64,000 bases of DNA. Origin: Cladosporium halotolerans. Its lineage: Eukaryota. A program made the translations under genes and the position numbers. Under the pieces are notes generated by a model that was not told the DNA's origin, did not search any database, and saw only the letters and a program-made list of their open reading frames with translations. Shown piece after piece: positions 15,044-58,605 of this stretch. Every line of letters begins with the position of its first letter. Within the stretch, counting starts at the first letter, position 1. Location: the NCBI RefSeq assembly GCF_011745625.1, contig NW_027191455.1, positions 310,001 to 374,000 of the forward strand. The letters are read 5' to 3'.

Positions 15044-16385
15044 ATGCCTTCTAGAGTATCGCCCTCTGGCTTCAAGGCTTTGGAAGGGACCTCGATGTTC
15101 CGCCCTTCCACAATTGGTCACCTCAAACTTGAACACAAAGTGGTGTTAGCTCCGCTGACGCGCATGCGTGCCACTAAGGAGTCGGAGGGTGTCTTTGTTC
15201 CTGGAGATCTCAACGTTGAATACTACTCACAAAGGGCCAGCAAGGGTGGCTTCATGCTCACAGAGGCGTGCCCTATCAGCAGGCTGGTAAGTTCACGCAC
15301 AGTAAATGACAGCAAAGCAATAGGTTGACCGTGTTTTCAGGCTGCTGGATATCCTGGGGTACCAGGCATCTTCACACAAACCCAGATCGACGGATGGAAT
15401 CGCGTGACGGACGCCGTTCACGAGAAGGGTGGTTTCATCTATTGCCAGCTGTGGCACGTTGGTCGTGCGACCACACCTTCTTTCCTCGGTGGCGAGAACC
15501 CCGTCAGTTCCAGCGATATTCCAATCAGTGGCAATGCTCTCGATGGCTCGCCTTACGCTCAAACCCCACCGAAGCCGATGACAGTAGCGCAGATCAAAGA
15601 GTTGACTCAAGAGTACGCTGCCGCCTCAAAGCGTGCACTCCAGGCCGGATTCGATGGCGTAGAGATTCACGGGTGAGATGATGACCATTTTGACACAGTA
15701 TTACCCGGAAGCTAAGTGTCTGCTCTCTAGGGCCAATGGATATCTTTTGGATCAATTCCTGCATGACAATGTCAACATTCGTGGAGACGGGTATGGCTCC
15801 AATATTGAAGGCCGTTGCCGCTTTCCGCTCGAGGTCATCAAAGCTGTCACGGAAGCTGTCGGCGCCGATCGCGTCGGAATCCGCCTGTCACCTTACAACT
15901 ACTTCCAAGACACTCGTGACTCGAAGCCTAACGAGCACTGGGAGTATCTTTGTGAGCAGATTGCCGCCATGCCAGAAAATCAACGCCTGTCCTACGTCCA
16001 CATGATCGAGCCTCGCTTCGACGAAGTGCTCGATGAGCAAGCTAAGATGGAATCTCTCACTGGCAACCCTGACGGAGGAAAGTTCGGCGGTAGGCCTAAC
16101 TCGCTCGTACCTTTCCGTCAGATCCTCGCCAAGGGCAGCGTGAAGTTCCTGAGCGCCGGCAGCTTCAACAGGGATAATGCTGCGCCTAAGATCGATGCTG
16201 GTGATGCTGACGCGATCGTCTTTGGCCGCTGGTTCATCGCCAATCCTGATCTTCCAAAGCGTCTTGCCGAAGGCTTGCCCCTGAACGACTACGACCGGAA
16301 CACCTTCTATGGCGCTGACCCTCCGGAGAAAGGCTACACTGATTACCCTGCTTTTGAGGCTGGTTCCAAAGGAGTTGAAGCCTGA
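15044..16385 (+). CDS. hxnT: Old yellow enzyme (NADH:flavin oxidoreductase / ene-reductase), HxnT-like; 2 introns
   Basis: Motifs VVLAPLTRMRA, YYSQRAS, QLWHVGR, GFDGVEIHG|ANGYLLDQF, FGRWFIANPDL and GYTDYP. Introns at about 15287-15340 and 15673-15730. Symbol inferred from family plus cluster context. Confidence 0.85.
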
Positions 16386-16877
16386 AAACCCTTTCGATGC
16401 TTTGATACATGAACGGAATACCTTGTAGCGATGCAAGTCAAAGGCTTTGCACGTGTCGGACTCTTCATTATCACAGCGACCCGTTTTCAGATTACATATC
16501 TGTTCTCAAGCATTAGGTTACATAACATCCATAGAGCTTTATCCAAGAACTGTATCACGTGATCCTTATCAGCAGTGAGGGCAAACTGCTTGAGCAACCC
16601 TGACCCACCCCACCCTGCCCACTCTTGGCAACGTGGACCAAAGGATTCCGATTCAAGATAACGTTTCCCAATCAATCTCAATCAATGTAATGCCCCTCAT
16701 GCTCCCGGCATCTGCCTATCGCTCATGCACATGATGGGATCCGGCAAGTCTACTCGGGCTCATGTTCGATGTAACCAGACGATAGGTCTGCCGTCAGTCT
16801 GGCCTGACGAGTTATCCAGCGCGATATTTGTCAAGTCTGTCTCATCAAACAATACAATCATTCCATAGGCTGCTTCA

Positions 16878-19775
16878 ATGGCTGGCAATGTGCGCAAGAA
16901 ACACTTATGTACATGGCCGGACTGCGGCAAATCATTTAACCGCTCTGACCACCTTCAAAGACACACCCTAAATCATGAAGCTGGGGATAGTACATGTCCA
17001 CGGTGCAGCGCCCACTTCAAGCGACAAGACCTTCTTGGTAGGTGCCCTGATGACATGTCGTAGCCATGGTACTAACCTTGTCCGAGAGCGCCACATGCAA
17101 AGGCATAAACAGAAGGACGAAGAAGCTGGCGGCGAAGGTCTAGGAATCGTATGCACACGCAAGCGCCTCTGGAGAGATGCCGATGGCAACATTGTCACCA
17201 AGCGACCAAAATCTTCGCTGCGGCCAGATGGCTCGACCGCCAACACCGAACACCTTTCGCTCGATGAGGCGGACGATCAGCCGCAACTGCACTCGCATTC
17301 AGAGTCGCCACAAGTTTACGAGCCGCCGTTGTCCCCACCTCCGTCTCTCACGAGCGCCGAGGCGCGCGCTCAAGATGAAATGGTCTATTGCATAGCTCCA
17401 AAAGACTTGCAAGCAGACTTCGATTTTCCGCCACTCATGGACACTGGAACTGATCCAGAGGCGATTGATTTCTTCGTTGACTCCCAATGGCCGCAGCAAC
17501 TGATCGAGCCGCCTTCGCTGGCATCCGGTGCTGCAGCTTTTGACGACGTTTTCAACCCAGACACAGGTATGGCTCAGACAACTCTCCACATAAAGGACTC
17601 TCTAATATGACATAGCAAGCTCTTTCAATATGCCTTTTACAACTATGAACAATTACAACTGGCTGTTTGATCTTGAGCAGCCCAACTTCCCAGTGAACAC
17701 TGATTCAACGACTACAGAGCGGACCCGCCCACTCATCACGACAACTCCCGAGTCATTTGGATTGAACCCGCAAAGCATGTGTGAGTTTCCAGAGTTCGCT
17801 ACGAATCATCTAGGCTCTCGGACAGCGTCTGTATCGTACGGGGTCCCAAGCCCGCAAAGCCAGCAAGAGCTATCAGTCCAATCTGGTCCACGATTGAAAA
17901 ACCCAAACCCCACTCCTGCACGAGAGCCGCATACACAGTCAGGGTTCTTACCGGATGCTCGGGAGGGAGTCCGCCAGCAGTACCATAACCCCATGCCCTC
18001 TTCTCCGGACTCGGATGGCTGTAATTCCTTCATGGGCAAGTCCTCAGAACAATCCCTGGTGCTTGATGACATCTCTCGTGGGCGGATCCTCGACTTGGTC
18101 GTCGAGGCCCGACCACAGACAGCGGAAGGAACACTTGTTACACGGGATCATCCATTATTGACGCTTGGAGCAATGCAAAGCTATTGCGACTTATTCTTCT
18201 ACCGCTTCAATAAGAGTTATCCGTTGATCCATCGAGCAACGTTTGAACCTTCGCGGGTGGAGCCGCTCTTGTTGCTATCTATCATGCTCCTCGGAGCCAC
18301 CTATGGAGGCAAGGATGCACACCGATTGGCAGTTTGCATCCATGATATTACGCGAACGCAAGTCATCCAGCACAGCGCTTTCACTGCAACGCCAGAGCTT
18401 TGGATGCTGCAAGTCATACTGCTCATAGAATGCTTTGGCAAGTCGAGAGCGGGACAGAAACAGCATGATATGTCCCACTTGTTCCATGGCATGCTTATCA
18501 AGTAGGTCAAGTTTGTGTCTTGCCACAGAACAATGCACTGACTTTGACAGTCTTATTCGACGGAGCGACTGCCAATCTGCCAAATTGCCCGAATACGTTG
18601 ACGAATCACTGGACATGGACACACGGTGGCGGGTGGCTATGGAAGTTGAGCAGCGGAAACGCCTTGCACTGCTTTGCTTCCTATGGGATACCCAGCACGC
18701 AGTCCTGTTCTCTCAATCTTTGTGCATGTCTGCATTTGAGCTTCGAACGAATCTACCTTGCAACCCTGATGTATGGGAAGCAGAGACAGCTTCCGAATGG
18801 GCAAGGCGTTCCGTCGGTTGCGCTGAAGTCACCTTCCTCTCTGTGCTCAAACTATACATGAACTCAACCCAGGCATCAACACCACCTCGGCTCAACGCAT
18901 TGTCACGCCTGCTTATACTCCATGGCTTGATGTCTGTCTTCTGGGATATGAAAAGGCGAGATCAAACCTCACTTGGTGAGTACGAGGATATGGCGCGTTC
19001 GCTTCTGACAGAGCTACTGACTGGTGATGTTGCAGGAGCTGTCGGCCCAAACGCAGAATGGAAGCCTCGTCTTGGTCAAGCATATGATGCTTGGAAGACG
19101 GACTTCGATGCATACTGCATGAACATGACAATGCATCTGAAAGAAAGTCCGGCAGTGAAAGGGGAATTCGTCCGCTTCAGCACCAGCGCGCTCGCCATAT
19201 ATCACGCCGCCCATATGGTCCTCAATGTCGAAGTGCTGGATCTGCAGATCTACGCAGGAGCGCGCCATATCATCGGCCGGCCAGTCAGCTTACATGACTA
19301 CGAAAGATCTAGGTTCATCGTGAAGCAATGGGTGGAGGAGGCCAGTTCGGCGAACAAAGCCGCGTGGCATGCCGCCCACTTGCTGAGAGACGGCATCATG
19401 AATCTCGAAGGCTGGGACGTCGACCAACAGTTCCATTACCCTTGGTGCCTATATCTGGCGACTCTGACTTGCTGGGCTTTCCATCATGCGAAGAACGATC
19501 GAGGCGTTGCTCATCGCGGGCCTCGGACACCTAATCACAGCTCGAATGAAAATACCAACCAAGAGTCTGGCATGAATGCACTGATCAGTAGTATGACAGC
19601 GATCGGCCCAGGAGGTCTGAGTCGCTTGGCGGGCAAGCAGTCGACGAGCGGCCTCATTGCTGTCGTCGCCAAACATTTGGGCAATATACGGTGGGCCGTG
19701 GTCTATGAAGGCATGAAAGTGTTGAAGGGCCTGGAGCCGGAGAAAGCAGGAGCACGCTATGACTTTATGAGGTAG
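16878..19775 (+). CDS. hxnR: C2H2 zinc finger plus fungal-specific TF domain regulator, HxnR-like; ~4 introns
   Basis: Two N-terminal C2H2 fingers (CTWPDCGKSFNRSDHLQRHTLNH; CPRCSAHFKRQDLL|ERHMQRH) and a Fungal_trans region (FNKSYPLIHRATF; CFLWDTQHAVLF; YPWCLYLATLTCWAF). Same architecture as HxnR and located inside the cluster. Confidence 0.85.
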
Positions 19776-20064: not shown

Positions 20065-21632
20065 CTATGACTTTCCTTGAACTCGAGCAGGACTGTCCAC
20101 CTTCACCTCGTTGATCTCAGATCCGCCCCAGTGCCAAAAGCGGTCAACATCCTCCTCCACTTTGTAGCCAAGTAGCTGAGGGGACAAGCCAGAGTCTCTC
20201 CACGCGAGAGCCTCGCCTTCCTCCTTAGCCTGCATTGCTCGATCGCGCTCCTCCTGCTCTGGTCCATCATGCAAATGGTACAGCCACTGCTGTCTGTTGC
20301 CACGCTCTACGACCATCTCTGTCCGCGGTTTCCTGCATTGCTCGTAGATCGTTAGCAATCGCCGTTTCTCCGCCGGGTCACGAGGATTCGCGCTACGGCC
20401 GAATATTTCGCCCAGGACAGCGGCATCTTCGAGAGCCATGCCGGCACTGAGAATTCAATTAGCCTGGACATTGCTGCATTCAAGACTGGATATGACTTAC
20501 CCCGAAGCCAAATACGGAAGCGTAGCATGGACGGCATCGCCCAACAGAGTGAATGCGCCGGAGGGATGACTCCAAGAGTCCATGCCAGATCTAATGCATA
20601 GCCGCCACTTGTATACAGACTCACAAAGTGCTAGCAGTTTGGGAATTCGATGATCCCAGTCTTTGTAGAGAGCGCGCATCTCCTCGACATCACCTGCTAG
20701 GGTATTGGCGCCTGCAGGCATGTCATCAGGAACTAGCAGAACCATATTGAAGAGCTCGCCTCCGCGGAGGACGTAGTTGACTGGAGAAAGTCAGCTCTGG
20801 ACGCTCATCATGGATGTTCAAGCTTACCTGCGTGTGCATCTGGGCCCAGCCAGTAGTTAACTTGAGGGTCCGTCACGAACGAAGCCAATTCTGGATCTTT
20901 GAGCATTTCTTTTGTTGACAGAAGTAGTCTGTACGCAAGATCGCCAGTCAAGATTGGAGGGTCTTCTCGACCGAGCATTATCTCGCGCAAATTGCTGTTG
21001 ATGCCGTCTGCACCAATGACAAGGTCAACCACGTGTTGCTCCCCATTCTCCAACGTCAAAGTAGCAAAGTCGCCTTCTGAAGAAGGTTCAACATTGGAAA
21101 CTCTTGCTTTAGTTCTGATATTTGCGCCGAGTTCAGCAGCACGGTCGAGCAGGCAACGATGGAGATTGGCTCTGTGAAAGTCCCAGTAGAAGGTCCCAGG
21201 ATATTGCGCGGCGGACGTTGCGAAGTCCATGTGCGAAATGACCCCGCCCTTCCAATGGAGCATATTGACTCTCGAAGGTTTGGTCGAGTACTTGTCAAGA
21301 GCTTCTTTCATGCCCCACGATTGTAGTACGCGGCTGCTGTTCGGGAGCACCTGGATCCCAGCACCGACTTCGCCGATCTCGTTCGCGGCTTCGAATATCT
21401 GGACGTCGTGGCCTGCCAGAAGGAGAGAAATGGCCGCGCCAATACCTCCCAAACCGGCGCCCACGATGATGATCTAGTATGTATCAGCAGTGCGAACGCT
21501 GGCCATACGTGCAGCGCCTCCATGTCCAGGAACCCTGCAATGATAACGCAGCCATCGAGCATCGAGGGTACGTACCTTGAGTTTGGTGCCATCCTCGCGG
21601 CGCTGCTGGTCTTTTATTGGAATCGCAGCCAT
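20065..21632 (-). CDS. hxnX: FAD-dependent monooxygenase (salicylate hydroxylase / 6-hydroxynicotinate 3-monooxygenase family), HxnX-like; spliced
   Basis: FAD fingerprints GAGLGG, DLVIGADG and LLGDAVHATLPYLASG|AGMALEDA. ATG 21632 (MAAIPIKDQQRREDGTKLK) is followed by an intron. Confidence 0.85.
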
Positions 21633-22050: not shown

Positions 22051-22061
22051 CAAGAGTGGGG
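22051..22061 (+). promoter_or_regulatory. CAAGAGTGGGG, candidate HxnR-binding site upstream of hxnX
   Basis: Exact 11-mer that also occurs at 32837 and, reverse-complemented, at 36589 and 39847. Contains the GHGGGG core. Confidence 0.6.
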
Positions 22062-22301: not shown

Positions 22302-23336
22302 CTACTTGAGCACAGCCGGCATCATGGCATCGGGAGGAGGCTTATTCTTTGACTTGAACTCATCTGCCATTTCTGCCATTGTCATCCATTCCACTCCTTC
22401 ATGCTTGTTGATGTATTCGATCAGTCTAGGACTCGTCAGTGCGGTCTGAGCTTGAGGTTACTTTAGCCCTCACATACCTCTCGTGCATAAGAAGAACGTG
22501 GGGTCTGCCTGAAACATCAGGATGACAAGTGATCGGAAAGATGCAGATCTTGCTGGGGTCCGGATCATCCGCAAGCTCACGGTAATAGTAATCGAAGTGG
22601 TCTCTCCAGATGTCCTCAACGTCGCGAGGGTTGACCCAACCGTGGCTGTTGGCACTGTTCTTCACAAACATCATTGGCGGAAGGTCGTCGATGTACCAAC
22701 TGCCAGGGATCTCGACCAGGCCAGTCTCCTTGCCTCGGACCAGTGGCTTCATCCAAGTCTCGGCTTTTTGAGTGTAGTCGATCTTTGTCCACGTGTCACC
22801 AGTCCTCAACCAATACATGTTGGCATCGTCATGAGACATGGAGTGATCATATTCGATGCCGTAGCTGAGCATAAGCTCAACGCCCTCGTGGCTGGTCTCC
22901 CACCATGGAGCTACACTGCCACGCGGTGGCTTGCCACAGAAGTCAGTCAGCAACTTGTGGGTCTTGTCAAGCACGTCACGCTGCTGCTCTAGTGTCATGT
23001 CTGACGGATTCTCGTGCGAATAGCCTGTAACACTATGGATCAGCAACCTTCTCCAAAAGCCAATTTGACACAGTTACCATGGAGTCCAATCTCGTGGCCA
23101 GCATCTCGTACCATAGCGCACTCTTCCGGAAACGTCTCCAATGTGTGCCCAGGGATGAACCAGGTGGCTTTGATGCTGTACTTATCAAAGAGCTTCAACA
23201 TTCGTCGAGTACCATGTGTGCCGGCCCAGAGGCCACGTGAGATATCGCTGGCCGAGTCTTCGCCACCGTAAGAGCCGAGCCATCCAGCAACGGCGTCGAT
23301 ATCAACGCCGTAAGCGCAGATGATTCTCTTTGGCAT
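22302..23336 (-). CDS. hxnM: Polysaccharide-deacetylase-fold amide hydrolase (cyclic imide ring opening), HxnM-like; 2 introns
   Basis: [38 protein letters not shown] and [16 protein letters not shown]. Last exon [13 protein letters not shown]...PAVLK* ends at 22302. Confidence 0.88.
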
Positions 23337-23759: not shown

Positions 23760-25630
23760 TCAAGCCTTACGCAAGACTTGCTCTACCTGTGTTGCGGCTC
23801 CGAGTATCTTTTCCTCATCGAAGCGCCGCCCGACAAGTTGTAACCCAACGTGATGGCCATCCATTGCTTCCGCGTCATACCTTTGCCAATTCCACGCATC
23901 GTTTGGGTTTCGAGGCTCGTATCCCTGCAGGGCAATATCATGCTTTGAAGCTTTGCCGGCAGGAAAGCTAAGCGCCGTATAGTCGAGTATGTTGAAGACC
24001 TTGGTGTACCCGACCCAGCGGCAGCTCCTGTGCGTCATTGCAGTATGCGGCATTGTCGGCATAAGAACGACGTCGACACAGCGGCCGGTGGGTGATCTTT
24101 TCTCGTTCCACATCGTGTGATACGCCTGTTGGGCAGCTATCTTCCTTTTGTTCAGCTGCCAATATTCGTAGACTGAGATCGGAGGAGCGCGATCAATCAG
24201 CGACTGGACGTGCGGGAGAAACGGCTCTCCGCCCTCAGTCACAGCTTGACGGATGTCTTCGCCGCCATCCGCAGTGTAGTACTCGTCCTATCATCGTCAG
24301 CGTCACCCCACATACATTTCACTTAAGATGTTTCCACTTAAAGTTCTTACCATGATGGAAATGCAGTCAGCGTGCAACGAGGCGTCCCACTCAACTATTT
24401 CATGTCCAGCGTCGATCAACTTTTCTACCGTCTCTTTGAGCACTCTCTCGACAGGTGGATGAACTTTGACAACTCCATCATCTAGTAGCACGCCAATGAC
24501 TAGCGGTCGATGCGAAAACGTTTGGAATTCGTTCTCTTTCCATGGCAATGGAGGTAGTTGAGGATCCGACTTCCATGGTTCTGATTCAATGACTGCCTTC
24601 GTGACCAGCGAAAGCGAGCTTAACGAGCGAGCCATGGGACCAACCGCGGACGGAACATGCTGCTGTCCCTCGGTCGACACCGCTACACCTTGATATGACA
24701 TGCGGCCGCTCTTTGTTGAATGTCAGCCAATTGACATACACGTTGGACAAAGGGGCGGGAAAACCTACGCTTGGTTTCAGACCCCAGAGCCCGTTCATAT
24801 GGCTCGGGATTCTTATAGATCCACCAATATCAGTACCCCAACCGATCAAAGAACCATTCAGCGCCAACAATGCGCCTTCCCCGCCGGATGAGCCACCTGA
24901 CGTAAATTTGGGATTGAGCGGGTGAGTTGTCAATCCCCAGAGAGGGTTCTCGCACTCGCACCACTGACTTATTAGATCAGTGAAATTTCTCGAGGTCAGA
25001 GGAAACATACCATGATACTCTGTGGGAGATTGGTCTTTGCGATGATGACCGCACCGAGCTGCCTGAGAACACTGACAAGTAGTGCATCGGAAGTCGCTGG
25101 AGCGAACGCTCGACCCACGTAGCCAAGAGAGGAATCGAATCCCTCCACGTCGAATTGGTCTTTCAGTGATACTGGAACGCCATGGAGAGGACCAACGAGC
25201 GCACCATATTCCATCATGGAAGCGTCAAGGCTTTTTGCTTGCTTCATGGCGTCTTCAAAGCAGATTTCCGTGAGGCAGTTCGTCTCAAGTATAGTTCAGC
25301 CGTATGTCCTCACTGCTGTATCAATAAACATACCTTGTTGTGTGCATCACATGCTCTGAGAGTCAGTTAGAGAGGCCCATTGTGGTCCAGTGAAGATTTG
25401 GCGTACTTATCTATGTAGGCCGTGATGACTTCTTGAACGGAAGCTTGGCCGCTCTGATACAGCTTCGTGAGTGGCTCGATGTCGGCAAGCTCTGTGAAAT
25501 TGATCACGGGCCTTCGAGTCTTGCTTAAGTCTCGAGGCTTCTTGATATGCTCTTCCCTGATGGCTCGTTTCGCTGCTACGACCTCTGTCCATGGCCTTTG
25601 AAGCGATGGAGAATCTTCGGCCACTGTCAT
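23760..25630 (-). CDS. hxnN: Amidase-signature family amidase, HxnN-like; multi-intron
   Basis: [20 protein letters not shown] and [11 protein letters not shown] (Lys-cisSer-Ser triad), with C-terminal [13 protein letters not shown]. Confidence 0.85.
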
Positions 25631-28611: not shown

Positions 28612-30718
28612 TCAAGCTTCCAGAAATCCAGCGAAATAGTCATCGATCCAAATCGCAGCTTCCTGGCCATTACCTTGGAGACCATGGTCCCACCGCTTCA
28701 GTGTCCCAACGTACCCATCTGGTCGAACAATTACTACTGCAACTTCGGAAACGTCCAGACCACCCAGCCAAGCTTGACTACAGCTTCGTACGCCGCCCAT
28801 CGCATTGGGGATATCGTCCAAGTAGAAAGCCCAACTACTGCTCTGGAGAAGAGGGTGTAGGTCCGCGATCTCCACAGTTGATTTCGGAGCTGTCGTGACG
28901 ACCGCAGGTGTGTACAGCCGCGAGACAGCAGTGTATCTTTGTGGCTGCATGTAGATGGCAGAATCTGGGATCGGCGTATTGAGTCTTCCATAGCTTGTCT
29001 CTGCAAGTGCCGACGCACGGTAGAGGCAAGACTGTTCATTGCCTCCAATGTAGTCAGAGACATTGTTGAGAAAAGTGGAAGCGGCGTGAACATCAGGCAC
29101 GAAGAAGAAAACCCTGAATTGACCAAGCATCGGTATGTCCAGCTGGAGGTCGAGAGGGTTGGCGTCGATGTATCTGGTGACTCGCGCAGGCGTGAGAAGG
29201 CATCCCGCTTTGAGCTGGCCTTTAGGAGTGGTTTCGGGCTGGTTGAGAACGTTGGCGTTGTACTTGACACCCGCCCCGGATATGAAGCTGATGTTATTCG
29301 AGAAGTTTTCGGCTAACGCTTTGTCGTCGCCAGCTGCGAAAGCATTCGCGTGTTCGAAATCAAAATTGACCAAATCCTGGGCAATCTTCCTACGCTCATG
29401 CTCATAAGTCGCGAGTAGCGACGGCTTAGCCAGGCCACGAAGGGCCAGATTGAGCTTCCAAGAGAGATTGAAAGTATCATGCATGCTCGTATTCATGCCC
29501 TGTGCGGCTTTTGGCGAGTGTGTGTGACAAGCCTGTGTAGTGTCAGCGCTCCAGGTAAGGCCCACTGCATGGTACATGGTGTCTTACATCTCCTGCCAGG
29601 AACACTCGGTTCGAGTCGTCTGAGAAGCCGCTTGCCACCCTCTGTCCAACTTTGTACACGGAGAACCACTCTGCAGAGAATGAGCGAGTGTACCTCCCAA
29701 GCATGCGAGGAATAACTCACCAATGCTGTCCCATTCTAGAGTATAAGGTGCAATGATCTCTCGAGCCCGACGGATCACAAATTCCTGCTTCTCTTGTTCG
29801 GAGGTGAATGAGGCTTCGAAGCCGGAGCTCAATTCGATGTAGAGTCGGGTCATGTTTCGTTCGCGAGGGATCAACAGGATCGTGCCTTTGGTCTCAGAAT
29901 GGATAACCACCTTTGACCAAAGATCCGGGAAATCAGTCTTGATGACACCATCCAACACTCCCCAGGGTGCTTTACTTGGCTCGCCTTCCATGGCAAGGTT
30001 GGGAATTGCTTTTCGGACTTTCGAATGCGCCCCATCGCAACCGACCAAATACTTCGTCTTCAGCAAAGTTGTTTGGCCCGACTTTGGACTGGTGTAAGAG
30101 ACCACAAGTGGATCAATGGCAGTCTCGCTGCTTGCATAGGTGACGAATGGGGAGCTGCGGTCGACCGCAACATTTCTCTCGGCCATGTCTGTCAACAATA
30201 CATCTTCCATCATGCCTTGGTGGACTAGCAGGATGTAGGGATCCTTGACATTGACACTCTCAGGATAATGTATTTCACGTCCAGTCCGGTGGAGCGACGC
30301 ATCGCTTGAAGAATTCTGACACCCGCGTCAGCGAGTACACTTAACAGTGGATTAGGTAGAAAGCCACACCCAGAAACAAATGTCATAGACTTTGACACCA
30401 TTGCGCAGAAGATCATCTCCGAGGTTTAACTGTCGCAATGTTTCTATCGACTTGGGTTGCAAGCCATCTGCCCTTCCAGTAGCAGTTTTGTCGGGTCTAT
30501 CGTCCAAGATTCTGCTTCTAATGCCGTAACGTGCCAGTGTGCATCTGAGCCCGTCGAGTCAGTCTATGCCGCATCTCTAATTACGATCGAACTTCTACCT
30601 ACGCGAGCATCAAACCTGCTGGGCCGGCGCCCGCAATGACGACGTCTTCGATATCAACGTTTCGGAACACATCGTTTCCAGCAATTGTAGAGTCGTCACC
30701 AAGGGCCATAGGTGCCAT
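28612..30718 (-). CDS. hxnV: Phenol 2-monooxygenase-family FAD monooxygenase, HxnV-like; ~4 introns
   Basis: ATG 30718 reads ...[12 protein letters not shown], then [44 protein letters not shown] and C-terminal VIVRPDGYV. The first three exons splice in frame by hand. Confidence 0.88.
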
Positions 30719-31373: not shown

Positions 31374-32708
31374 TCACCAGGCGAGATTGGGCCTTTCAGC
31401 TGCACAACTTTCGACCTGAGAGCAGAACGCTTCGTCTTCGGCCCCTTTAGAAGATCCGACAGATGGCTTGGACTTTGCAGGCCAAATCTGTCTTCCTTCT
31501 TGCTGTTCAAGCTTCCAGTGCACCGACAAGGCCTCCCTCACACGTTGCTGGAAGAAGATATGGCCCTGAGGGTCAAATGTCAGTCACTGTGTGCGTAGTG
31601 TCCTGGTTGCATACGTACACTTTCTTTCCGCGGATGCAGTTGCCCTGATGTGAAGACGCCTGCCTCCAGGTTCACTTGGCTTCCCTCACACAAGGCTTTG
31701 TCTTCATCAAGGACCTGTTTGTAAAACTCGCAGATGTTGGCGAACTCCTGGTCACTCGCATTCTTATGGCGGTACACTTCGTTCTCAATCTTGCTTCTAG
31801 TTGCTGAGAGAGGTACCATGCGCTGAATGTAGAAGAAGTTATCCCTGTCATAGGTCAGCCGGCGGTGACGAAACTTGCGGATGCGTTGCAGTCGATGGCT
31901 TACGTGCAAGTCACAGAAGTCGTCGGATAGCAGAAGGTGATCGCTCTTCGAAATTGAGCATCACTCGACTCTTTGTTGAAAATGTAATGCCGCATCTGAG
32001 ATCCGGTGGGCTCAACGCGGTACTTGTTAAGATCCGACACGCCTGCAATCAAGGGTGTGAGGTGGCACAGTGATAGCACTCATTGTAGTTGTCGATCAAA
32101 GACTTCCAGTTCGCCGACACGTTCATGGACCAGCAGTGATCCAGCTTAAATTCTTCTTCAAACTTGAATTGGCTCATCATTTCCTCATCGACCCCTTCGT
32201 TGCTTTTCTCCCAGCTGATGTCAGGCTCACCGGCTTGTAGGTTCGCCCAGATGAAGCCAAATTTGTCGGTATGGATGTTGACAGGAAAGAGGCTTTGCTG
32301 TGACTTGTCAAATCCCTCCACAGTATCGAAACGTGGAGCCTTCGCAAGCTTTCCGTTAAGACCATAACTCCAGCCGTGGTATTTGCAACTGAGAATGGTG
32401 GCAGTACCACTTTCAGATTGCACAACCGGGAACGCTCGGTGGCGGCAAACATTATGGAACCCGTTGATCTTGCCCTGGCGGTCCCTAACAAGGAAGAAGG
32501 AGTAACCGGCTATGTTGAACTGCTGGTAGTCTCCGGCTTGCGAAAATCGAAGAGTGTGCGTGAGAAGTAGCCAGTCGCGTGAAAAGATGGCCCGGCGTTC
32601 CAATTCATACAGACTTTCTGCCTTGTACCAAGATGCGGGCAAGTTTCGAGGTATGTCATCATTGGCCGGGCAGTCCGAGTTTTGGCGGGTGAAGTAGTGC
32701 CACAACAT
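31374..32708 (-). CDS. Rieske [2Fe-2S] non-heme iron oxygenase alpha subunit (choline monooxygenase-like); 2 introns and an apparent 1-nt frameshift near 32053
   Basis: Rieske motif NVCRHRA...SCKYHGWSY and mononuclear Fe motif [20 protein letters not shown]. After the frameshift it continues [15 protein letters not shown]...[13 protein letters not shown]...GQLHP...RPNLAW*, stop at 31374. Confidence 0.85.
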
Positions 32709-32836: not shown

Positions 32837-32847
32837 CAAGAGTGGGG
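32837..32847 (+). promoter_or_regulatory. CAAGAGTGGGG, candidate HxnR-binding site upstream of the Rieske gene
   Basis: Exact copy of the cluster 11-mer about 130 bp upstream of the Rieske ATG, with AGATAG (GATA) at about 32860. Confidence 0.6.
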
Positions 32848-33338
32848 GGATTAGCGGGTAGATAGGCGTGAGCGGCTCGAGGAAGCCCTAGTTGCCGGTG
32901 ATAGCACTTGGCCTGTCAGACAAACTGCGAGGAATCTTGAGTCCATGACATTGTCTTGAATCCCGGTGAGTCCAATCGTTTAAGTTTTCTGCGCCACCTC
33001 GAGGGCTTTCTCGAAGGCAGGATCTCGATGCCAAATGACGAACTGCGCTAATGTCACCGTAGATTTCCAAGGGGCGGTTAATTATGCTCGAGGTGCGCAT
33101 AATTTGCGGATAATTGGTCGCTTCTTAAAATATTGACCAATGCAGCCAACTGCGTTCAAACGTCTTCAGCACAGTTCGTGTCGTTGGCACAAGGAACAGC
33201 ATTGCGAGAGGTTGCTGGAGATCAGCAGAAGAGCAGTTTGTTTTCCGAAAGCTTCCGTTCCGTCTTGTGCCGACTCACGCCTTTCTCCTTGCGCGACATG
33301 CGGCATTGTGATACAATCCGACCCATCTCATCAATTGG

Positions 33339-34204
33339 CTACCATTTTGTCACTCCGCCATCTACTAGGATATCCTGGCCCGTCATGTATTTGCTCGCGT
33401 CTGAGGCAAGGAATATACAGGCTCCACGAATGTCGTCTGGGTCCGCCACTGCTCCATTCATGATTTCGTCCTTCCAGTTTTCTAACAGTTGTGGAAATGG
33501 CGCTTTGGCATGTCAGTAAAAATGGACACGCAGTATCAGGACATTCTTACGCACCTGTCATTTCCGTTCGGACATAGCCGGGAGAGATGCTGTTGACTCT
33601 TATCCCGTGTTGCGCCAACTCCACTGCCATTGGTGGACACATCGACTTCACAGCACCCTTGGTGCCGCAGTAAGCACTGGACATTTGGCCTCGAACGGCT
33701 CTGGAAGCCGCAATGGATGCTACCATAACAATCGAGCCTTTGCTGGTCCTGTTGGCGATCATTGCTTTGGCAGCCAGTTGCGCCGTGAAGAATGCGCCTT
33801 TCACATTGACAGAATTCAGCTGATCGAATGCAGTTTCATCAGTCTCAGTGAAAGCCACGTTACGATTCGTTCCTGCGCAGACGACGCATATGTCCAAGGC
33901 TCCATTGGTCACCTTTAGAAAGGACGCGAAGGCCTCTCTGAGACTTGCCACCGAGCTCACATCCGCTTTGAAATCCCAAGTCTTGACAGAGTGTTTGGTG
34001 CTGATTAGGTGAAAGTCCGGAGAAGGATCTATGAGATCAAGTACGACGATGTCCGCCCCAGCTTCCGCGAGGCCCTCTGCAAAGGAGAGACCGCATCCTC
34101 TTGCGCCGCCTGTCACTACGGCGGTGCGGCCCTTGAGTGAGAACTATCGATCTTGTTAGCACAAAGCATCGACATACTGTGACATTTCGTACCCTTGCTA
34201 ACAT
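33339..34204 (-). CDS. hxnW: Short-chain dehydrogenase/reductase (polyol dehydrogenase-like), HxnW-like; 2 introns
   Basis: MLAR|FSLKGRTAVVTGGARGCG (TGxxxGxG), catalytic YCGTK, IRVNSISPGY and C-terminal YMTGQDILVDGG. The start exon is tentative. Confidence 0.85.
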
Positions 34205-34559
34205 TGAGAGAACGTCGTTCCTGCTGATGAACCTACGATCTAGATTGTTGCGAGGTCCCCTTTGCTCAAATAGTCTCTTTCAAAGGACTGATGGCTATTC
34301 AAGCCATAGGTGGACGCCCCCCACCTGCTACCCACTTCTCGCCACATCTTGCTCTGACGGCCCATGGTATCGGTAGACACCTGAGGGTACCTGAAACTAC
34401 GTGCGACTCCTATACAGGTGCCACACATGTGGTCAGACACGCAATTTGCAATGGTACGCATGTTGATTTCGTCCTCTCTTGGTGACTCCTTGCCGTCGTT
34501 GCAATCGTGAAACCCCCATCTACTGACCTGCAGTGCTGTATCCAGCCAAGCGGTGTGTC

Positions 34560-36181
34560 TCAGACGAAATAACGCCAGTCCGGTGACTTCTCGCCCGCTT
34601 GGAGAAGATCTGTATCCACTTCTCCCGCCTTGAGAATGCGTCCTTGCTCGCGGTTCCTACGGTTATTCTCTCTGCGCATCCAAAAACTCATTCCAAGGAC
34701 CGCTGTAATCGATACCACGTTACACAAGGCCGTCGCCGCCAAAGTAGGCCAGTATGAGGGTGCATACTCTGTTCGGAATGTCGCTCCCGAGATGATACCG
34801 CCGAGGTTACCCAGACCAACCAGGAATCCAGTCCTCGCGGCACGGCTGGATTCATCAAGATCATTGTTATTGTGCCTAAACACCGTCAGCGCATGTTCCG
34901 TCGCGCACGATCAAGATCGCCTACCAGGAATGCACCAGCACTGAAGGAATGTAGGCGCCGGAGGCCATGAGGAAGCAAGAGAAATATGCAACGCCTTGAT
35001 GCTCGAGAGCGTCGATGCTGGCGAGTATGACCATGCCGATGAGAGAAATTGTAAGGGCACCCACAATATGGAAGCCGCGCTCTCGGAACTTGTCTGATGA
35101 TTTAGCGAAGCAGAGCAGGACAACGAAGCCGACGCAGTTGGGCGCAACAGTACAGAGATTAGTCTTGACCGTCGAATATCCAAGACGCTGTACTGTCGCC
35201 TTGTCAGCTCGAGACCTCTTAGTTCATTCCACGAGTAGCTCACCAATCTGGGGAAGAAAATTAGACGTGGTGCTGAAGGCCACTGGATACGTAAAACAAA
35301 TGATCGCCCAGTGTGCAAAATGCCAGCTCTTCCAGCTGGCAAAAGCATCCCTCATGCTGAGCTTTGCATTGATCTTGTTGGAGCTGTCTCTCAGCATTCG
35401 AGCTCTCGCCGCAGCCTTCTCCCGCTCATCCAGGAACCACGCAGTTTCCGGCCGTGCCGGCAGGAAGAAGTATGCGATTACGCCGACAATGACGGTCGCG
35501 GCACCTTCGATGAGAAACAACCACTGCCATCCATGAATGCCTGGATAGTTGATCTGGAAGACTCCAAAGCTAATGAGCCCGCTGAACGCTGCCGCCAACA
35601 GCGCACTTCCGAAGAACATGGCCAGCCTGAAACTGAGTTCGCCTCGGGTGTAGAAAAGCGTCAGGTAAAATATGACACTGCAGTAGAATCCGGCCTCGAA
35701 ACTAGCCAGTAGGAGGCGCAGTGGGAGCATCCCCGCGAAGCTCGTGGCGGCAGCCTGGATAGTAGCCATCGATCCCCAACCAACAATGAGCACGGGAAGC
35801 ATTGTTCTGGCCGAAAATCGCTTCGTTAACAACGTCAAAGGAAGGTCCATGACGCCAAACGGCACGCTGAAGAGTAGGATAAGCAAGGAGTATTGGTTGC
35901 CGGTGAAGTTCATGTCTTTGTCCATGCCATCTGTTTTGGCATTCCCGATATTACTCTGTTTTGATGTTAGCACCGACATGTGTAAGAGTAAGTAAGACTT
36001 CGCGTACGCGATCGACTGCGCTAAAAAAGTAGCACAGCGACAAAAACGGCAGCAAATAATAGTCAAGCTTTCTCACGTATGAGCGTTCTGCGTCTTCATC
36101 GATCCCAAGCACTACGTTGCCAACTGCGACTTCTAGTGCTTTCCCCCCGGGCTGAGTCGGCGGATCCGATTTGTAGTCCAT
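34560..36181 (-). CDS. hxnP: MFS anion:cation symporter (Tna1/Dal5 nicotinate permease family), HxnP-like; ~3 introns
   Basis: VRKLDYYLLPFL, DR|SNIGNAKTDGM, LFYTRGELSFR, GWQWLFLIEGAAT and C-terminal DWRYFV. Confidence 0.85.
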
Positions 36182-36588
36182 TGTGGCGAAATCTCTGGGC
36201 AGTGAGAAGATGCTTTTCCCAGTCCGAGACGCAACGAATAAATATACAGTGATCGTTCTCATTTCAAGCTATACTACTGCAAATCATTTATATGCCTATC
36301 GCACCATGCAATTCATGCGCGCATTTTGATATGCTGCACATTTTATCTATTCGCGACTTTTTAGCTTCAGCCACTTGGTGACAGCAGTGGGGTAGATATC
36401 CAATTGCGGTCTTTGGCAGTGTATTCCCATGCGAGGAGTATGTTGTTGCGTGATATGTGCCTGTACGAGTCATTGTCATTGAAGATAGGGCAAAGATAGG
36501 GCTCCGCCTTGGGTGGCCGCTGCCGTTGTTCTCCGCAATTCACCATGCAACGGCCGGCGGCACGCTCAGTCGGTGTTCCCCCCCATCT

Positions 36589-36599
36589 CCCCACTCTTG
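36589..36599 (-). promoter_or_regulatory. CCCCACTCTTG (reverse of CAAGAGTGGGG) in the hxnP/hxnY divergent promoter
   Basis: Exact reverse-complement copy. A second core (AGCAGTGGGG) lies at 36383-36392. Confidence 0.6.
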
Positions 36600-36794
36600 A
36601 GCTACATGTTGAGGGACCCTGGGGCATGCCGGGATCGCCGGCGAGATACGTCCGGTCGGAAGAATGTTGCGACATGATTGGATATATAGAAGGATAATGT
36701 GTTAAGACACAGACGACCCTTTACAGCACATACCTTGAAGCATTCGTCTGAGACTCAACACCCCTTGCATCTGCTCGCCAGACATCTGTTCAAC

Positions 36795-38119
36795 ATGACA
36801 GCCACTGTTCAAGCGCCTCCGATTCTCGACTTTTCCGGTATGTTGCCGCACAGTCCTCCATGCGGACTCTTGTTGACGTCTCTAGTGTTCTACGGCAACG
36901 ATGATGCCGCCAAAACCAAGCTTGTCGACGATGTGCGGACCTGCTGCCTCCACAATGGTAAGAGACATTTCTGAATGCTTCTGCCTGACTCGCGAGCTGA
37001 TATTGGTCGGGCAGGCTTTTTCCAAATCGTTGGTCATCGAGTGCCAGCTGAACTTCAGGAAAATGTTCTCGACAGCCTGAAGTCTTTCTTCTCTTTGCCA
37101 CTAACCGAAAAAGAAAAGGTCCACAAAGGTCAGATTGCTTCTTTGCTCAGATCGGCTGCTGCCTAAAACTCACTCCTTTTTAGATAACACAACCTGGAAC
37201 CGAGGCTATGAGAACATCGGATCTCAGATTCTAGAAGCCGGTGCCAACCCTGACCAGAAAGAAGGGTTCTACGTTGGGGAAGAGATCACCAAGGATCACC
37301 CGTATTTCCTGGGCAAGAAGCTCAACTCAGGACCTAACCAGTGGCCTCAGGATTTCCCGAATGCTGAGAAGTTCCGGAAATCTTCAATGGCCTACTACAC
37401 TGAAATGCACGCGTTGGCTAGAGATATCCTGTCTGTCATCGCGCAGACTCTCTACCTGGACGCTAATTACTTTGACACCTTCACGAGCGGCGCTGTTGCA
37501 ACCCTTCGCTACCTTCATTATCCTCCACAGCCGAAGGACTCGGATGAAAAGCTCTCCCGCGGCATTGGAGCTCACACCGACTTCGGTTCTGTGACCCTTC
37601 TTATGCAAGACGATGTTGATGGGCTGCAGGTGTGGGAGAAGACTACCCAGGAGTGGCTTGATGTGAGTGATATTCTCAATGACGATTCTGTAAAAAAGCG
37701 CTCACATCCGATAGGTCATGCCCATTAAGGGTGCTTACGTGGTCAATCTTGGGAACATGTTTATGCGATGGTAAGCGGTCTGCAAAGGACCATAGTCAAT
37801 AATGCAAGCTGACAAAGCAAGGTCCAACGATCGCTACATCAGCAACTTGCACAGAGTCATCAACAAGAGTGGGAAAGAACGTTACTCTGTTCCCTTCTTT
37901 TACAGCGGCAACCCTGACTACCAGATCGACTGTCTTCCCAACAGCCGTGAGGAAGGGGTTCCTGCTAAGTATCCTCCAGTCACTGTCATGGATTGCGTCG
38001 GAGCGAGTTATCGGGACTCGTACGGCAAGGCCACGGCCTTTAAATTAGCCGCGGCCGCTACACAAGCCACAGAGTTGCCTAAGGGGCTCTCGATGTCTGC
38101 ACAGCCAATTCTTGCATGA
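36795..38119 (+). CDS. hxnY: 2-oxoglutarate/Fe(II) dioxygenase (IPNS/DIOX-like), HxnY-like; multi-intron
   Basis: PPILDFS, GFFQIVGH, NRGYE, LRYLHYPPQ, GIGAHTDFG (HxD), SNLHRV and RYSVPFF. Confidence 0.87.
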
Positions 38120-38376
38120 AAACGTCTTATGAGGTCCCATTGAATACAGGATATCGGTAGTCAACCCCTAATCAAATCATCCACAATATCCGAGTACCAG
38201 ACGTCAAGATGCATCAAATTTCTACCGCGGCGTCCTTGCCTCAGAGAGGCTGAGAAGTGTTGTTTTTTCCACAAGGCTCTAAGGGAAAGATCAGCAATGG
38301 AACACCCTCGTAGTCAATCAACGAAAAAATGATGCTGCAGAGAAGATTATGCCGCAATATAGTGATAACTTCAGAG

Positions 38377-39666
38377 CTATAGCCGTGCAATGCCAAATCC
38401 ATCCCTCCTTCGAAGGCCCAAAAACTTCTTGTCGATGCCTCGGATGTTGGGGATCCCTGCTAATGCCATGGTCCTAGATAGTTCGCGCTCCAGAATGTTG
38501 GCCACCAGCTCAACGCCTATCTGCCCATCGTAAGCCAGGCCCCACAGAACGGGTCTTCCGACAAGGACGAGATCTGCACCCAAAGCGATCGCCTTGAAGA
38601 CATCACTGCCGTGCCTGACGCCTCCGTCGAAAAGGATCGGTATCTGCCCTTTGGTTGCGGCCGCAATGGATGGGAGTGCTTCAATCGTTGCCGGCGCAGA
38701 GTCAAGCTGTCTGCCTCCGTGGTTCGATACAACAATGGCGTCGACTCCATGTTTGACCGCCAACTCGGCGTCTTCCTCAGTCATCACGCCTTTGAGAATG
38801 ATCTTCATAGAAGTCGCACTTCGTAGCCAACTGATGGTCTCGGTCCACGTCAGCGAGGAGCTGTGAATACTACCTCCTGCATCTCGCACCACCTGCTTCG
38901 CTTGAGCTGCTGTTGGCGCATCTAATAGTTGCCGCTCTTGACTTGGTCTGTAGTTATCGGCTTTGGTCTTCTCTGAACCTTTGTAATTAGCAAGATGAAG
39001 ATTCGAGGGCAGGACGAGAGGCGTCTTTCGTTCGTTGATACGGTTTCCGAGGAGCGGCGTGTCAACAGTGATCACCAGAGCTGTATATCCAGCATCTACC
39101 ACCTGTCAGCAAAATGACGAGAAGTTAGCTCGGATTGAACTGTCTCACTTGCTGCTCTCTTAATCAAGGGAGTGCTAAGAGCTGAATTTTCGGTCACATA
39201 GAGCTGGAACCACCGCTCGGGTCCATCGGGTGTATTTGGCATCAACGATGCAATGTCTTCGAGAGATGTTGTCGACTGCGACGAAATCGTCATATTGACC
39301 CCGAGTCTTTGCGCGGCCCGTGCAACGCTCTCTTCGCCTTGCGGGTGAGCGAGCTTCTGCATTGCAGAGGGAGCAAAAGCGATTGGAAAAGGGTATTCCA
39401 CGCTGAACAAACGTGTGGAAGTATCAACTTTTGATACGTCAACCATCACTCTCGGCCGGATGAGGATGCTTTAAAAGGTATAAGTCCATGCTCGTTTGTA
39501 TTGCGTGAAGGCGCACCAACCGGTCAAAAGCCGCTCGGTTCCGAATCAGACATTTCTGATCGTCCGCTCCGGATGCATAGTAGTCGTAGACATTTTTCGG
39601 TAACTTTTGTCTCGCGAGGGATTCCAGTTCATCGATCGTGACAGGGTTCACGATCGTCTCCGCCAT
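38377..39666 (-). CDS. FMN-dependent (S)-2-hydroxy-acid oxidase (glycolate/long-chain hydroxy-acid oxidase family), C-terminal PTS1 ARL; 2 introns
   Basis: YDYYASGADD, ILIRPRVMVDV, APSAMQKLAH, ITVDTPLLGNR, ILKGV, VSNHGGRQLD, DGGVRHGSDV and GRPVLWGL. No cytochrome b5 domain. Exons splice in frame. Confidence 0.9.
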
Positions 39667-39846
39667 ATCGTCCAGTTCTTGTCATCCGATGCCTATTCAC
39701 TCAATTGACGATTGCAGCATTCATTACAAAATCCAATAAGTATCGACACTAGAACAATGCCATTGTGGGTCAACCATTCTACAACCGCTAGGGTAGCGCT
39801 TGTTTACGTGGCCTGTCGTCGCCATCCCCCACCCGTCCGCCTGACT

Positions 39847-39857
39847 CCCCACTCTTG
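39847..39857 (-). promoter_or_regulatory. CCCCACTCTTG in the divergent promoter of the hydroxy-acid oxidase and SnoaL-like genes
   Basis: Exact reverse-complement copy of the cluster 11-mer, with a second CCCCAC core at 39827-39832. Confidence 0.6.
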
Positions 39858-40045
39858 ACATTTGCGAACCGATACGGCCGCTCCATAACCCACCAGCCTG
39901 CGGAATTGAGCAGCGAGTGGAGGAGACAACAGGGATGGACAGGTTCAATCACTGAATCGATATGTAAGTCGAAGCTTTGTGTCGATGCAACCCAGATCGA
40001 AGACCACCCTCGCCGCCAGAGCAGATGCCGACCAATTAGTATTCC

Positions 40046-40513
40046 TTGGCCACTTATATCAACCAGTGTGTGCTCACGCTATATGTCAGACTTTCAGCCA
40101 TACTGATCAACGACTTAGTGGGCGATCAAGAAGCGATCACCAGTCTTTTACATTCCTATGGCGACGTCCTTTCTTCACGCTCTCTCGCAGATGTTCTATC
40201 AATCTACACATCAGATGGCGTTTTCATGGCACCTGGATACCAGCCTTCAGTCGGTACAGATGCATTGAAGGCGTCATACAAACGCATCTTCTCAACCATC
40301 AAGCTGGATATTGAGTTCAGCATCAACGAAATAGTGGTGATGGATGGTGTATCATGGGCGTTTGCGGGAACCACAGCAGAAGGCACTAAGCATTGGCTGC
40401 AGAAGGAAACCGATGAGAGCCATCACAACCAAGAGATATTTGTTTGTCAAAAGGTTGATGGAGACTGGAAGATTGCGAGATACTGCTTTTCCAGTATGAA
40501 ACCATTGACTTAG
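40046..40513 (+). CDS. SnoaL/NTF2-like (DUF4440-type) small protein; true start uncertain, probably a small upstream exon
   Basis: DQEAITSLLHSY...IYTSDGVFMAPG..SVGTDALKASYKRIF...NQEIFVCQKVDGDWKIARYCFSS follows the ketosteroid-isomerase-like pattern. The ORF-track start is a TTG. Confidence 0.75.
   Translation: MATYINQCVLTLYVRLSAILINDLVGDQEAITSLLHSYGDVLSSRSLADVLSIYTSDGVFMAPGYQPSVGTDALKASYKRIFSTIKLDIEFSINEIVVMDGVSWAFAGTTAEGTKHWLQKETDESHHNQEIFVCQKVDGDWKIARYCFSSMKPLT

Positions 40514-58572: not shown

Positions 58573-58605
<33 letters not shown>

Follow-up and report, generated by a model that had tools for sequence, protein, structure and literature searches.

An hxn-Type Nicotinate Catabolic Gene Cluster of Cladosporium halotolerans With a Linked Rieske Oxygenase Gene and a Common Promoter Box

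Introduction

The fungal nicotinate pathway was elucidated between 2017 and 2022 (Amon 2017, PMC5746545; Bokor 2021, PMC8478523; Bokor 2022, PMC9304392). In the portions of these and the other cited articles that were available, to which our statements about the literature refer, the HxnR regulon of Aspergillus nidulans is described as leading from 6-hydroxynicotinate through 2,5-dihydroxypyridine, trihydroxypyridine and piperidine-diones to (S)-2-hydroxyglutaramate, the last amide of the pathway, and from there to 2-hydroxyglutarate and ammonium. Here we compare with these systems a catabolic gene cluster of Cladosporium halotolerans contained in a window of 64,000 nucleotides (nt), namely positions 310,001 to 374,000 (forward strand) of contig NW_027191455.1 in RefSeq assembly GCF_011745625.1; all coordinates below count from the first letter of this window.

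Published single-locus hxn clusters comprise 11 genes in Cyphellophora europaea and Hymenoscyphus repandus and ten, with hxnS missing, in Monascus ruber; Talaromyces stipitatus and Aspergillus section Flavi are reported to lack hxnS, and the cluster of Aspergillus section Nigri includes it (PMC8478523). A. nidulans (section Nidulantes) also has hxnS. The divergent gene couples of the published clusters are hxnP-hxnY, hxnN-hxnV, hxnM-hxnW and hxnS-hxnT. The clusters of Penicillium, Talaromyces and Aspergillus section Flavi contain pfdB, which encodes a peroxisomal FMN-dependent dehydrogenase with a PF01070 and a PF00173 (cytochrome b5) domain (PMC8478523). The available text of the published cluster descriptions makes no mention of a Rieske oxygenase, a glycolate oxidase (GOX)-type oxidase or a SnoaL-like protein.

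By its predicted gene content, the locus of the Dothideomycete C. halotolerans is a catabolic cluster of the hxn type, in which a Rieske gene, an FMN-dependent oxidase gene and a SnoaL-like gene accompany the familiar ones. We favor, by a modest degree of belief, the reading that it is an hxn cluster with a Rieske entry step, a peroxisomal oxidase exit step and a single regulon defined by a common promoter box, the functions being those predicted from the proteins. The cluster itself is another hxn cluster; what sets it apart as a variant is the Rieske linkage, the box and the GOX-type oxidase.

Results

Ten hxn-Type Genes

Pfam scans of stop-to-stop open reading frame (ORF) pieces of at least 70 amino acids (aa) between 14.9 and 44.3 kb (78 pieces in one scan and 95 in another) revealed 13 intron-containing genes at 15.1–40.5 kb of the 64-kb window. 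Their families run in the order Oxidored_FMN (+), Fungal_trans (+), FAD_binding_3 (-), Polysacc_deac_1 (-), Amidase (-), MFS_1/Sugar_tr (-), FAD_binding_3 with Phe_hydrox_dim (-), Rieske with Ring_hydroxyl_A (-), adh_short (-), MFS_1 (-), DIOX_N/2OG-FeII_Oxy (+), FMN_dh (-) and SnoaL (+). An earlier sequence-only reading of this DNA had proposed these 13 families in this order and on these strands, and Pfam recovered every one of them; the two C2H2 fingers of the regulator gave no Pfam match and are visible in the translation of 16878–17110 once a 49-nt intron is removed. Gene models were built with our own splice-aware dynamic-programming finder trained on the long ORFs of the window, and problem spots were checked by eye. 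Exon borders and coordinates are approximate in all models, and some acceptor sites are still misplaced, namely those of exons 1/2 and the last exon of HxnV, of exons 1/2 of the amidase gene, of the initial exon of the short-chain dehydrogenase (SDR) gene and of intron 1 of FMN_dh. In these models the 13 genes occupy 25.4 kb with intergenic gaps of 190–700 nt, and the frame is open in 12 of them, the exception being the frameshifted Rieske gene.

Ten of the predicted proteins correspond to members of the HxnR regulon, namely R, T, X, V, W, M, N, Y, P and Z. The HxnT-type old yellow enzyme (OYE; 15095..16385, +) has ~392 aa and two introns in its gene, with Oxidored_FMN matches on three exon pieces spanning profile positions 2–342. 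It is followed by the HxnR-type transcription factor (TF; 16878..19775, +), which combines a fungal-specific TF domain (Fungal_trans match) with two N-terminal C2H2 fingers, CTWPDCGKSFNRSDHLQRHTLNH and CPRCSAHFKRQDLL/ERHMQRH, the second being split by the 49-nt intron. The HxnX-type FAD monooxygenase (20065..21632, -; ~454 aa; FAD_binding_3 match) is of the decarboxylating hydroxylase type, as are its nearest PDB entries, among them 6-hydroxynicotinate 3-monooxygenase (NicC, 5eow, 1.3e-23). The HxnN-type amidase (23760..25630, -; ~520–530 aa) has Amidase matches on four exon pieces and a GGSSGG stretch that we take to be the amidase-signature motif. The HxnM-type cyclic-imide hydrolase (22302..23336, -; Polysacc_deac_1; PDB 3qbu at 2.2e-67) has the CE4/HpPgdA-like fold, the class given for HxnM (Table 1, PMC8478523). 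The HxnV-type enzyme (28612..30718, -; ~618 aa) is phenol-2-monooxygenase-like, with FAD_binding_3 and Phe_hydrox_dim domains and PDB matches that include 1pn0 and 2dkh, and the HxnW-type SDR (33339..34365, -; ~254 aa, first exon uncertain) matches adh_short at 3.3e-40. Two MFS transporters are of the HxnZ type (26328..27970, -; 523 aa; MFS_1/Sugar_tr match) and the HxnP type (34560..36181, -; MFS_1 match), the latter divergent from the gene of the HxnY-type 2-oxoglutarate (2OG) dioxygenase (36795..38119, +; DIOX_N and 2OG-FeII_Oxy), which has four to five introns and whose PDB matches include thymine dioxygenase 5c3p, though not as the top one.

The proteins differ little in length from their A. 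nidulans counterparts (Table 1, PMC8478523), at 392 versus 388 aa for T, 454 versus 461 for X, ~618 versus 620 for V, ~254 versus 254 for W, 523 versus 533 for Z, ~520–530 versus 543 for N and ~300 versus 307 for M. The nearest PDB folds of the HxnM, HxnV, HxnY and HxnX types agree with those reported for the Hxn proteins. The Z-type transporter ends in AAI and the P-type transporter in YFV, the A. nidulans HxnZ and HxnP ending in AAI and YFL (PMC13705651). When the last TF exon was used as query against longer proteins, 385 of the 7997 scored were relatives at E ≤1e-3, and the best 120 were listed. The best are C2H2 plus PF04082 proteins from genera such as Oleoguttula, Rachicladosporium and Exophiala (55–61% identity). 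Among these 120, two with 51% and 41% identity carry the name "Nicotinate catabolism cluster-specific transcription factor", and five are annotation models fused with an OYE, FAD monooxygenase or MFS gene, which are typical hxn neighbors. The nearest named proteins of the locus come from Cladosporium, Rachicladosporium and Oleoguttula. The ten hxn-type families that had been proposed for this DNA are thus present, with HxnR architecture and lengths near those of A. nidulans.

The locus shares its ten families and C2H2/PF04082 regulator with the published clusters, resembles those of C. europaea and H. repandus in its single-locus layout, and has the 10-gene form without hxnS known from M. ruber. 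No xanthine-dehydrogenase-type domain indicative of hxnS was found by Pfam among the ORF pieces of the cluster, in 8849–14083 or in 45 of 111 flank ORFs of at least 110 aa, and hxnS was therefore not seen in the window. The divergent hxnP-hxnY couple is retained, whereas the N-, V-, M- and W-type genes all lie on the minus strand, so that hxnN/hxnV and hxnM/hxnW are not divergent; the Talaromyces cluster is likewise reported to lack such couples. Unlike the published clusters, this one carries the Rieske gene between hxnV and hxnW, and the GOX-type oxidase and SnoaL genes after hxnY. The "unified" layout that had been claimed is there, but it is not new, as single-locus clusters both with and without hxnS have been described before. 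What appear to be new are the Rieske–hxn linkage, the common promoter box and a lineage-specific frameshift of the Rieske gene.

hxn-Linked Rieske Genes in Other Fungi

The gene predicted to encode a group Va Rieske monooxygenase (31374..32708, -; ~405 codons; Rieske and Ring_hydroxyl_A matches) has 801 relatives at E ≤1e-3 among 987 candidates. Within the best 120 of these 801, which were listed, the closest are from Rachicladosporium and Oleoguttula (71–72% identity), and nine are annotated as fused with an hxn-type partner, either as true fusions or as merged gene models. When nine proteins were tested by tblastn against the window, the partner was seen in six: it is of the HxnV type in Rachicladosporium and Oleoguttula (56–60% identity to the window gene; 56% over the second half of the Rachicladosporium model P0001), of the HxnW type in Aureobasidium (62–72%, over the SDR half of model P0010) and of the HxnX type in T. 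stipitatus and two species of Aspergillus section Flavi (59–62%, the window's HxnX-type protein being 62% identical to the N-terminal half of these Talaromyces and section Flavi models). Three more section Flavi models of 816 aa were assigned to the HxnX–Rieske kind by their Pfam lists alone. The section Flavi models of this kind (P0058, P0062, P0065, P0080 and P0105) have a constant length of 816 aa and that of T. stipitatus (P0029) has 845 aa; in these models the two halves join without a spacer. A. nidulans HxnX carries a C-terminal type 1 peroxisomal targeting signal (PTS1), which an HxnX–Rieske fusion would lose.

A FastTree tree of the 120 listed relatives and the window's Rieske protein places the latter and all nine hxn-fused models in one 58-row clade with support 100, marked by the motif HPLI[AS]GVSDL. 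Five models fused with a transcription factor sit in the other half of the tree. These are P0070, P0082, P0083, P0099 and P0111 from Aspergillus and Penicillium, in which a Rieske protein from outside the hxn-linked clade, with HPDVA[NK] in four of the five, is joined to a fungal-specific TF, which suggests other small Rieske-plus-regulator modules.

Unfused neighbors were seen in a metagenome scan with a Rieske alignment (A1), from which 80 loci were kept and the 31 fungal-like ones compared with all window genes. One contig of 7.6 kb (L001) carries the Rieske gene (+, 83% identity), an hxnZ-type gene (-, 80%), an hxnY-type gene (-, 69–82%) and the start of an hxnP-type gene (+, 90%); blastn with default megablast settings gave no match between this contig and the window. 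Two others, L002 and L004, are too short to show neighbors. In Rachicladosporium, the TF (tag 02832) and the fused Rieske/HxnV model (tag 02840) are eight tags apart. The presence of the Rieske gene and an HxnR-like protein on contigs of equal size in Myriangium, Xylariales sp. AK1849 and Colletotrichum camelliae is a weak hint that they share a contig there. The expected co-occurrence of the Rieske gene with hxn genes is therefore borne out, since in several lineages it adjoins, or is annotated as fused to, hxnV-, hxnW-, hxnX- or hxnZ-type genes. A link between a Rieske gene and hxn or fungal nicotinate clusters was not found in the literature searched, and the term is absent from the available text of PMC8478523, PMC9304392, PMC7842363 and PMC13705651.

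Marks of Quaternary-Ammonium Oxygenases in the Rieske Protein

The solved structures nearest to a full-length member of the hxn-linked clade are carnitine monooxygenase CntA (6y8j, 1.7e-36) and stachydrine demethylase Stc2 (3vca, 1.3e-33), whereas classical ring dioxygenases match at 1e-23 or weaker. Group V enzymes are marked by a pi-cation aromatic residue at position 203 (clade Va), a bridging E205 and a Cys-X-X-Cys pair (PMC7948474; PMC10952381). The stretch DNYNECYHC of the Rieske protein aligns with DNYMECYHC of CntA, so that the equivalents of Y203, E205, C206 and C209 are kept; they are invariant in alignment A1, as are the [2Fe-2S] ligands CRHR...CKYHGW and the mononuclear-iron His pair. 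Of further CntA residues, Y225, F258 and Y315 are kept, whereas S, I/N and L stand in place of N270, Y295 and F319, respectively, in an alignment counted by eye. The cation site thus appears to be kept and the rest of the pocket to differ from that of CntA, although this is less certain. The protein resembles CntA and Stc2 in the Rieske CxH...CxxH motif and the equivalents of Y203, E205, C206/C209 and H208/H213, and it differs from them in being eukaryotic, in having no adjacent reductase gene and in its place in a pyridine-catabolism cluster; the relation to CntA is distant (1.7e-36 over residues 20–342).

A One-Nucleotide Deletion in the Rieske Gene

On the minus strand the Rieske frame halts at a TGA and resumes in the -1 frame with no further stop in the gene, and three full-length relatives read through the site unbroken in tblastn. 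Contigs assembled from public sequencing runs were aligned to 31300–40600 to compare alleles. In one run (X1), a single contig (depth 32.6) covers the whole stretch and is identical to the window, and this run possibly stems from the same source; a second (X2), a metagenome of another study with depth ~3.5, has the same sequence, and both include the frameshift. Two others, X5, with 34 differences over 8.8 kb, and X15, which is more divergent, have one extra base behind 32052 that gives CAC CCC TTG ATT (H-P-L-I) and restores the frame, so that the break is a deletion of one nucleotide (at 32052/32053) in a run of C. The deletion is specific to this lineage, and at least for X1 Logan's independent assembly confirms it as real. 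Run X15 is also one base short at 36578, in the hxnP/hxnY intergenic region, and at 37778, in what is presumably an intron of the 2OG gene; no coding frame is affected by either.

An intron across the frameshift was considered and rejected, as the available GT..AG pairs span 26–37 nt and would excise iron ligands. The site (32049–32057, -) coincides with an intron position, HPL|IAG, in the metagenome contigs L001 (intron at 1315–1428), L002 (842–952) and L004. By comparison with these contigs, the window's lineage has lost this intron and a second one of ~45–60 nt that splits exon 1 in L001 and L002.

A Peroxisomal-Type Hydroxy-Acid Oxidase

The FMN enzyme (38377..39666, -; FMN_dh on three exon pieces) is of the peroxisomal (S)-2-hydroxy-acid oxidase type and ends in ARL. 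Pfam found no cytochrome b5 domain in it, the protein begins at FMN_dh profile position 1, and the 270–370 nt upstream leave no room for another domain. Against PDB, it matches HAO1/glycolate oxidase at ~1e-53 to 1e-50 and flavocytochrome b2 at ~1e-27. It has 7989 relatives at E ≤1e-3 of 8000 scored; the best 120 were listed and include proteins of Cladosporium inversicolor and C. fusiforme (79–80% identity) and Neodothiora populina (68%; oxidase tag 005027 and Rieske tag 005024). All 20 full-length relatives shown start without cytochrome b5, and 18 of them end in ARL, SRL, SKL or AKL; two from Penicillium end in SRI or SKI, and P0242 and P0270 consist of the FMN_dh domain alone.

Like pfdB, the gene encodes a PF01070 enzyme with a PTS1 ending inside an hxn cluster. 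Unlike pfdB, which lies between hxnZ and hxnM, it stands after hxnY and encodes a GOX/hydroxy-acid oxidase (HAO)-like protein without cytochrome b5. An identification with pfdB was ruled out on these domain differences; judged from its predicted domains, the oxidase is a recruitment separate from pfdB and not its orthologue. The extra hydroxy-acid oxidase that had been claimed is thus present, with an hxn promoter box (see below), although an FMN dehydrogenase of another subtype is already published as an additional hxn gene.

A Common Promoter Box and GATA Sites

K-mer counts in eleven promoter regions of the cluster (6.2 kb) were compared with those in the rest of the window. The 11-mer CAAGAGTGGGG has exactly four exact copies in the 64 kb, all in cluster promoters: at 22051..22061 (+), 419–429 nt upstream of the HxnX-type ATG; at 32837..32847 (+), 129–139 nt upstream of the Rieske ATG; at 36589..36599 (-), in the divergent HxnP/HxnY promoter; and at 39847..39857 (-), between the oxidase and SnoaL genes and 181–191 nt upstream of the FMN_dh ATG. 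With up to one mismatch, eight matches occur versus 1.43 expected, and none of 100 shuffles reached eight; of the four boxes with one mismatch, two belong to the TF gene (promoter and coding region), one falls within the 2OG gene and one is outside the cluster. Ten of the 11 promoter regions contain the core [AG]GTGGG[GC].

The box recurs at similar positions in contig L001. The exact copy before hxnY lies 188–198 nt from the ATG in L001 and 196–206 nt in the window, and the same copy lies 424–434 and 408–418 nt, respectively, from the ATG of hxnP. The hxnZ box (one mismatch in L001, a two-mismatch variant in the window) lies 157–167 nt from the ATG in L001 and 156–166 nt in the window, and the Rieske box (two mismatches in L001) 128–138 and 129–139 nt. 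Orientation matches in all four cases. Box counts in L001 are not significant (three matches at up to two mismatches versus 2.0 expected), so the weight of the L001 boxes rests on position and orientation.

HGATAR density ranges from 0 to 10.2 per kb across the eleven promoter regions and exceeds the window mean of 1.89 in nine. An 8-mer, GCGATAGC, has five copies in the HxnV-, HxnN- and HxnM-type promoters (30719–31373, 25631–26327 and 23337–23759) versus 0.05 expected. The hxn genes are under the control of the GATA factor AreA, and the pattern of HGATAR and GCGATAGC fits such control.

SnoaL Gene and Flanking Regions

The last gene, a SnoaL-like (NTF2-fold) ORF (40040..40513, +), has an intact domain with SnoaL_2/3/4 matches, and its start is probably in a short upstream exon, as no start codon was identified in the gene models or by eye. 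It has 813 relatives at E ≤1e-3, the best with 67% identity and a typical length of ~136 aa, and no characterized relative was found among them; with its SnoaL_2/3/4 matches it resembles ketosteroid-isomerase-like NTF2-fold proteins such as its nearest structure, PDB 3d9r (function not known; 1.4e-16). The proposed tie of this gene to hxn is unsupported beyond the promoter that it has in common with the oxidase gene, and in the data examined nothing links SnoaL to hxn elsewhere.

The cluster is flanked by housekeeping genes, with a gene for a Rif1_N protein upstream (8849–14083; Pfam) and, downstream in this order, an ORF resembling the seed maturation protein family (SMP), a 660-aa ORF without a family and a SNF2/HIRAN/RING helicase. 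The SMP-like ORF (40675–41238, -) directly follows the SnoaL gene and has two matches to PF04927, a family that is unusual for a fungus. At window positions 1–8000 and 54000–62000, GC content is 0.58–0.68, compared with ~0.51 in the cluster, and many long overlapping ORFs without a Pfam family lie on both strands.

Discussion

Group Va marks and the retained cation site make a cationic N-methyl compound the best guess for the Rieske substrate. The enzyme would be a group Va monooxygenase that binds an N-methyl pyridinium substrate and most likely removes the N-methyl group of trigonelline (N-methylnicotinate) or of a related N-methylated pyridine carboxylate, and its product, nicotinate or 6-hydroxynicotinate, would enter the hxn pathway. 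At the other end, the (S) configuration of the hxn product makes an (S)-2-hydroxy-acid oxidase fitting as the following step, and the peroxisomal enzyme might turn (S)-2-hydroxyglutarate into 2-oxoglutarate; in the available text of the hxn pathway literature, an oxidation step after (S)-2-hydroxyglutarate is not discussed. The G-rich box CAAGAGTGGGG may be the site of the HxnR-type C2H2 regulator, through which the ten hxn genes, the Rieske gene and the FMN oxidase gene (perhaps also the SnoaL gene) would form one regulon. We infer both the trigonelline-type entry and the oxidation of 2-hydroxyglutarate as exit from the predicted proteins. In its most specific form, in which the HxnR-controlled group Va Rieske clade is an undescribed entry enzyme demethylating trigonelline or N-methyl-6-pyridone-3-carboxylate and a separately recruited oxidase closes the pathway to 2-oxoglutarate, the proposal is tentative and more doubtful than the general reading of the cluster. 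Among the papers listed on trigonelline and Rieske enzymes, no fungal enzyme appears in titles or abstracts.

Several observations weigh against this reading. No reductase family that could partner the Rieske protein was found in the Pfam scans of the cluster. If the Rieske product were nicotinate, hxnS would be needed, yet it was not seen in the window. The Rieske clade includes members from Aspergillus sections Nigri and Nidulantes, which have hxnS. In 11 of the 31 fungal-like metagenome loci (9.5–20.6 kb; Rieske 48–63% identical, probably of other clades), there are no hxn genes. In Venturia effusa, the Rieske tag is ~96 tags away from an HxnR-like gene, and in Neodothiora the HxnR-like match lies on a different contig from the Rieske gene. 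The box emerged post hoc from k-mer counts, and the available text of PMC5746545 gives no HxnR site for comparison. Both runs with the window's sequence carry the frameshift, and the public-run contigs over 31300–40600 contain no splice joints, those of X15 (guessed to be RNA) being contiguous and unspliced. With this recent one-nucleotide deletion in the Rieske gene, the entry step should be lost in this lineage.

With these points in mind, the Rieske, FMN oxidase and SnoaL genes might be bystanders in or beside an ordinary 10-gene hxn cluster, which we regard as rather unlikely. The Rieske gene is already broken in this lineage and in that sense dispensable, and the published extra genes nfsA and pfdB were judged not to be needed for nicotinate use (PMC8478523, available text). 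The oxidase and SnoaL genes lie at the cluster edge, and neither is on the 7.6 kb of L001. Moreover, C. inversicolor and C. fusiforme, whose oxidases are the 79–80% identical ones, are absent from both the best 120 of 801 Rieske relatives and the best 120 of 385 TF relatives, so that the oxidase may be a general peroxisomal enzyme beside the cluster. Against mere adjacency, however, the Rieske gene is enclosed by hxnV and hxnW within the cluster, its clade stands beside four different hxn partners in differing arrangements, exact 11-mer boxes precede both the Rieske and the oxidase gene, and the Rieske box keeps its distance in L001.

That the Rieske enzyme instead replaces HxnS, one option of the sequence-only reading, and hydroxylates nicotinate at C6 with O2 is improbable. 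The absence of hxnS from the window would suit such a role, as would the position of the Rieske domain fused to or directly behind the HxnX-type protein, whose substrate is 6-hydroxynicotinate, in T. stipitatus and section Flavi, both reported without hxnS. Yet its marks and nearest structures are those of group V quaternary-ammonium enzymes and not of ring hydroxylases, its clade occurs in the two hxnS-bearing sections named above, and the described nicotinate hydroxylases are, in the literature available, all molybdenum enzymes. Least probable of all is that the whole cluster degrades a pyridine other than nicotinate, or another N-heterocycle, by means of recruited hxn-like paralogues. The nearest structure to the HxnX-type protein is a 4-hydroxybenzoate decarboxylating hydroxylase (6.4e-50) and not NicC (~1e-23 to 1e-24), which would agree with a different substrate, but the complete set of ten families accompanies an HxnR-type regulator, relatives of which are named for the nicotinate cluster and fused to hxn-type neighbors in other fungi, and the protein lengths and the AAI and YFV C-termini match. 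We thus retain the reading of an hxn cluster with a Rieske entry step, a peroxisomal oxidase exit step and one box-defined regulon.

The locus offers candidates for the entry enzyme of clusters without hxnS (the Rieske clade), for the fate of 2-hydroxyglutarate (the oxidase) and for the HxnR recognition sequence (the 11-bp box, whose position is conserved between two species, those of the window and of L001). Intact and broken Rieske alleles in near-identical strains form a natural control pair. If the proposal is true, demethylation by the Rieske enzyme would be the first eukaryotic trigonelline-type catabolic step and would give group Va its first pyridinium substrate, and a Rieske entry would explain why hxn clusters are kept by fungi without HxnS.

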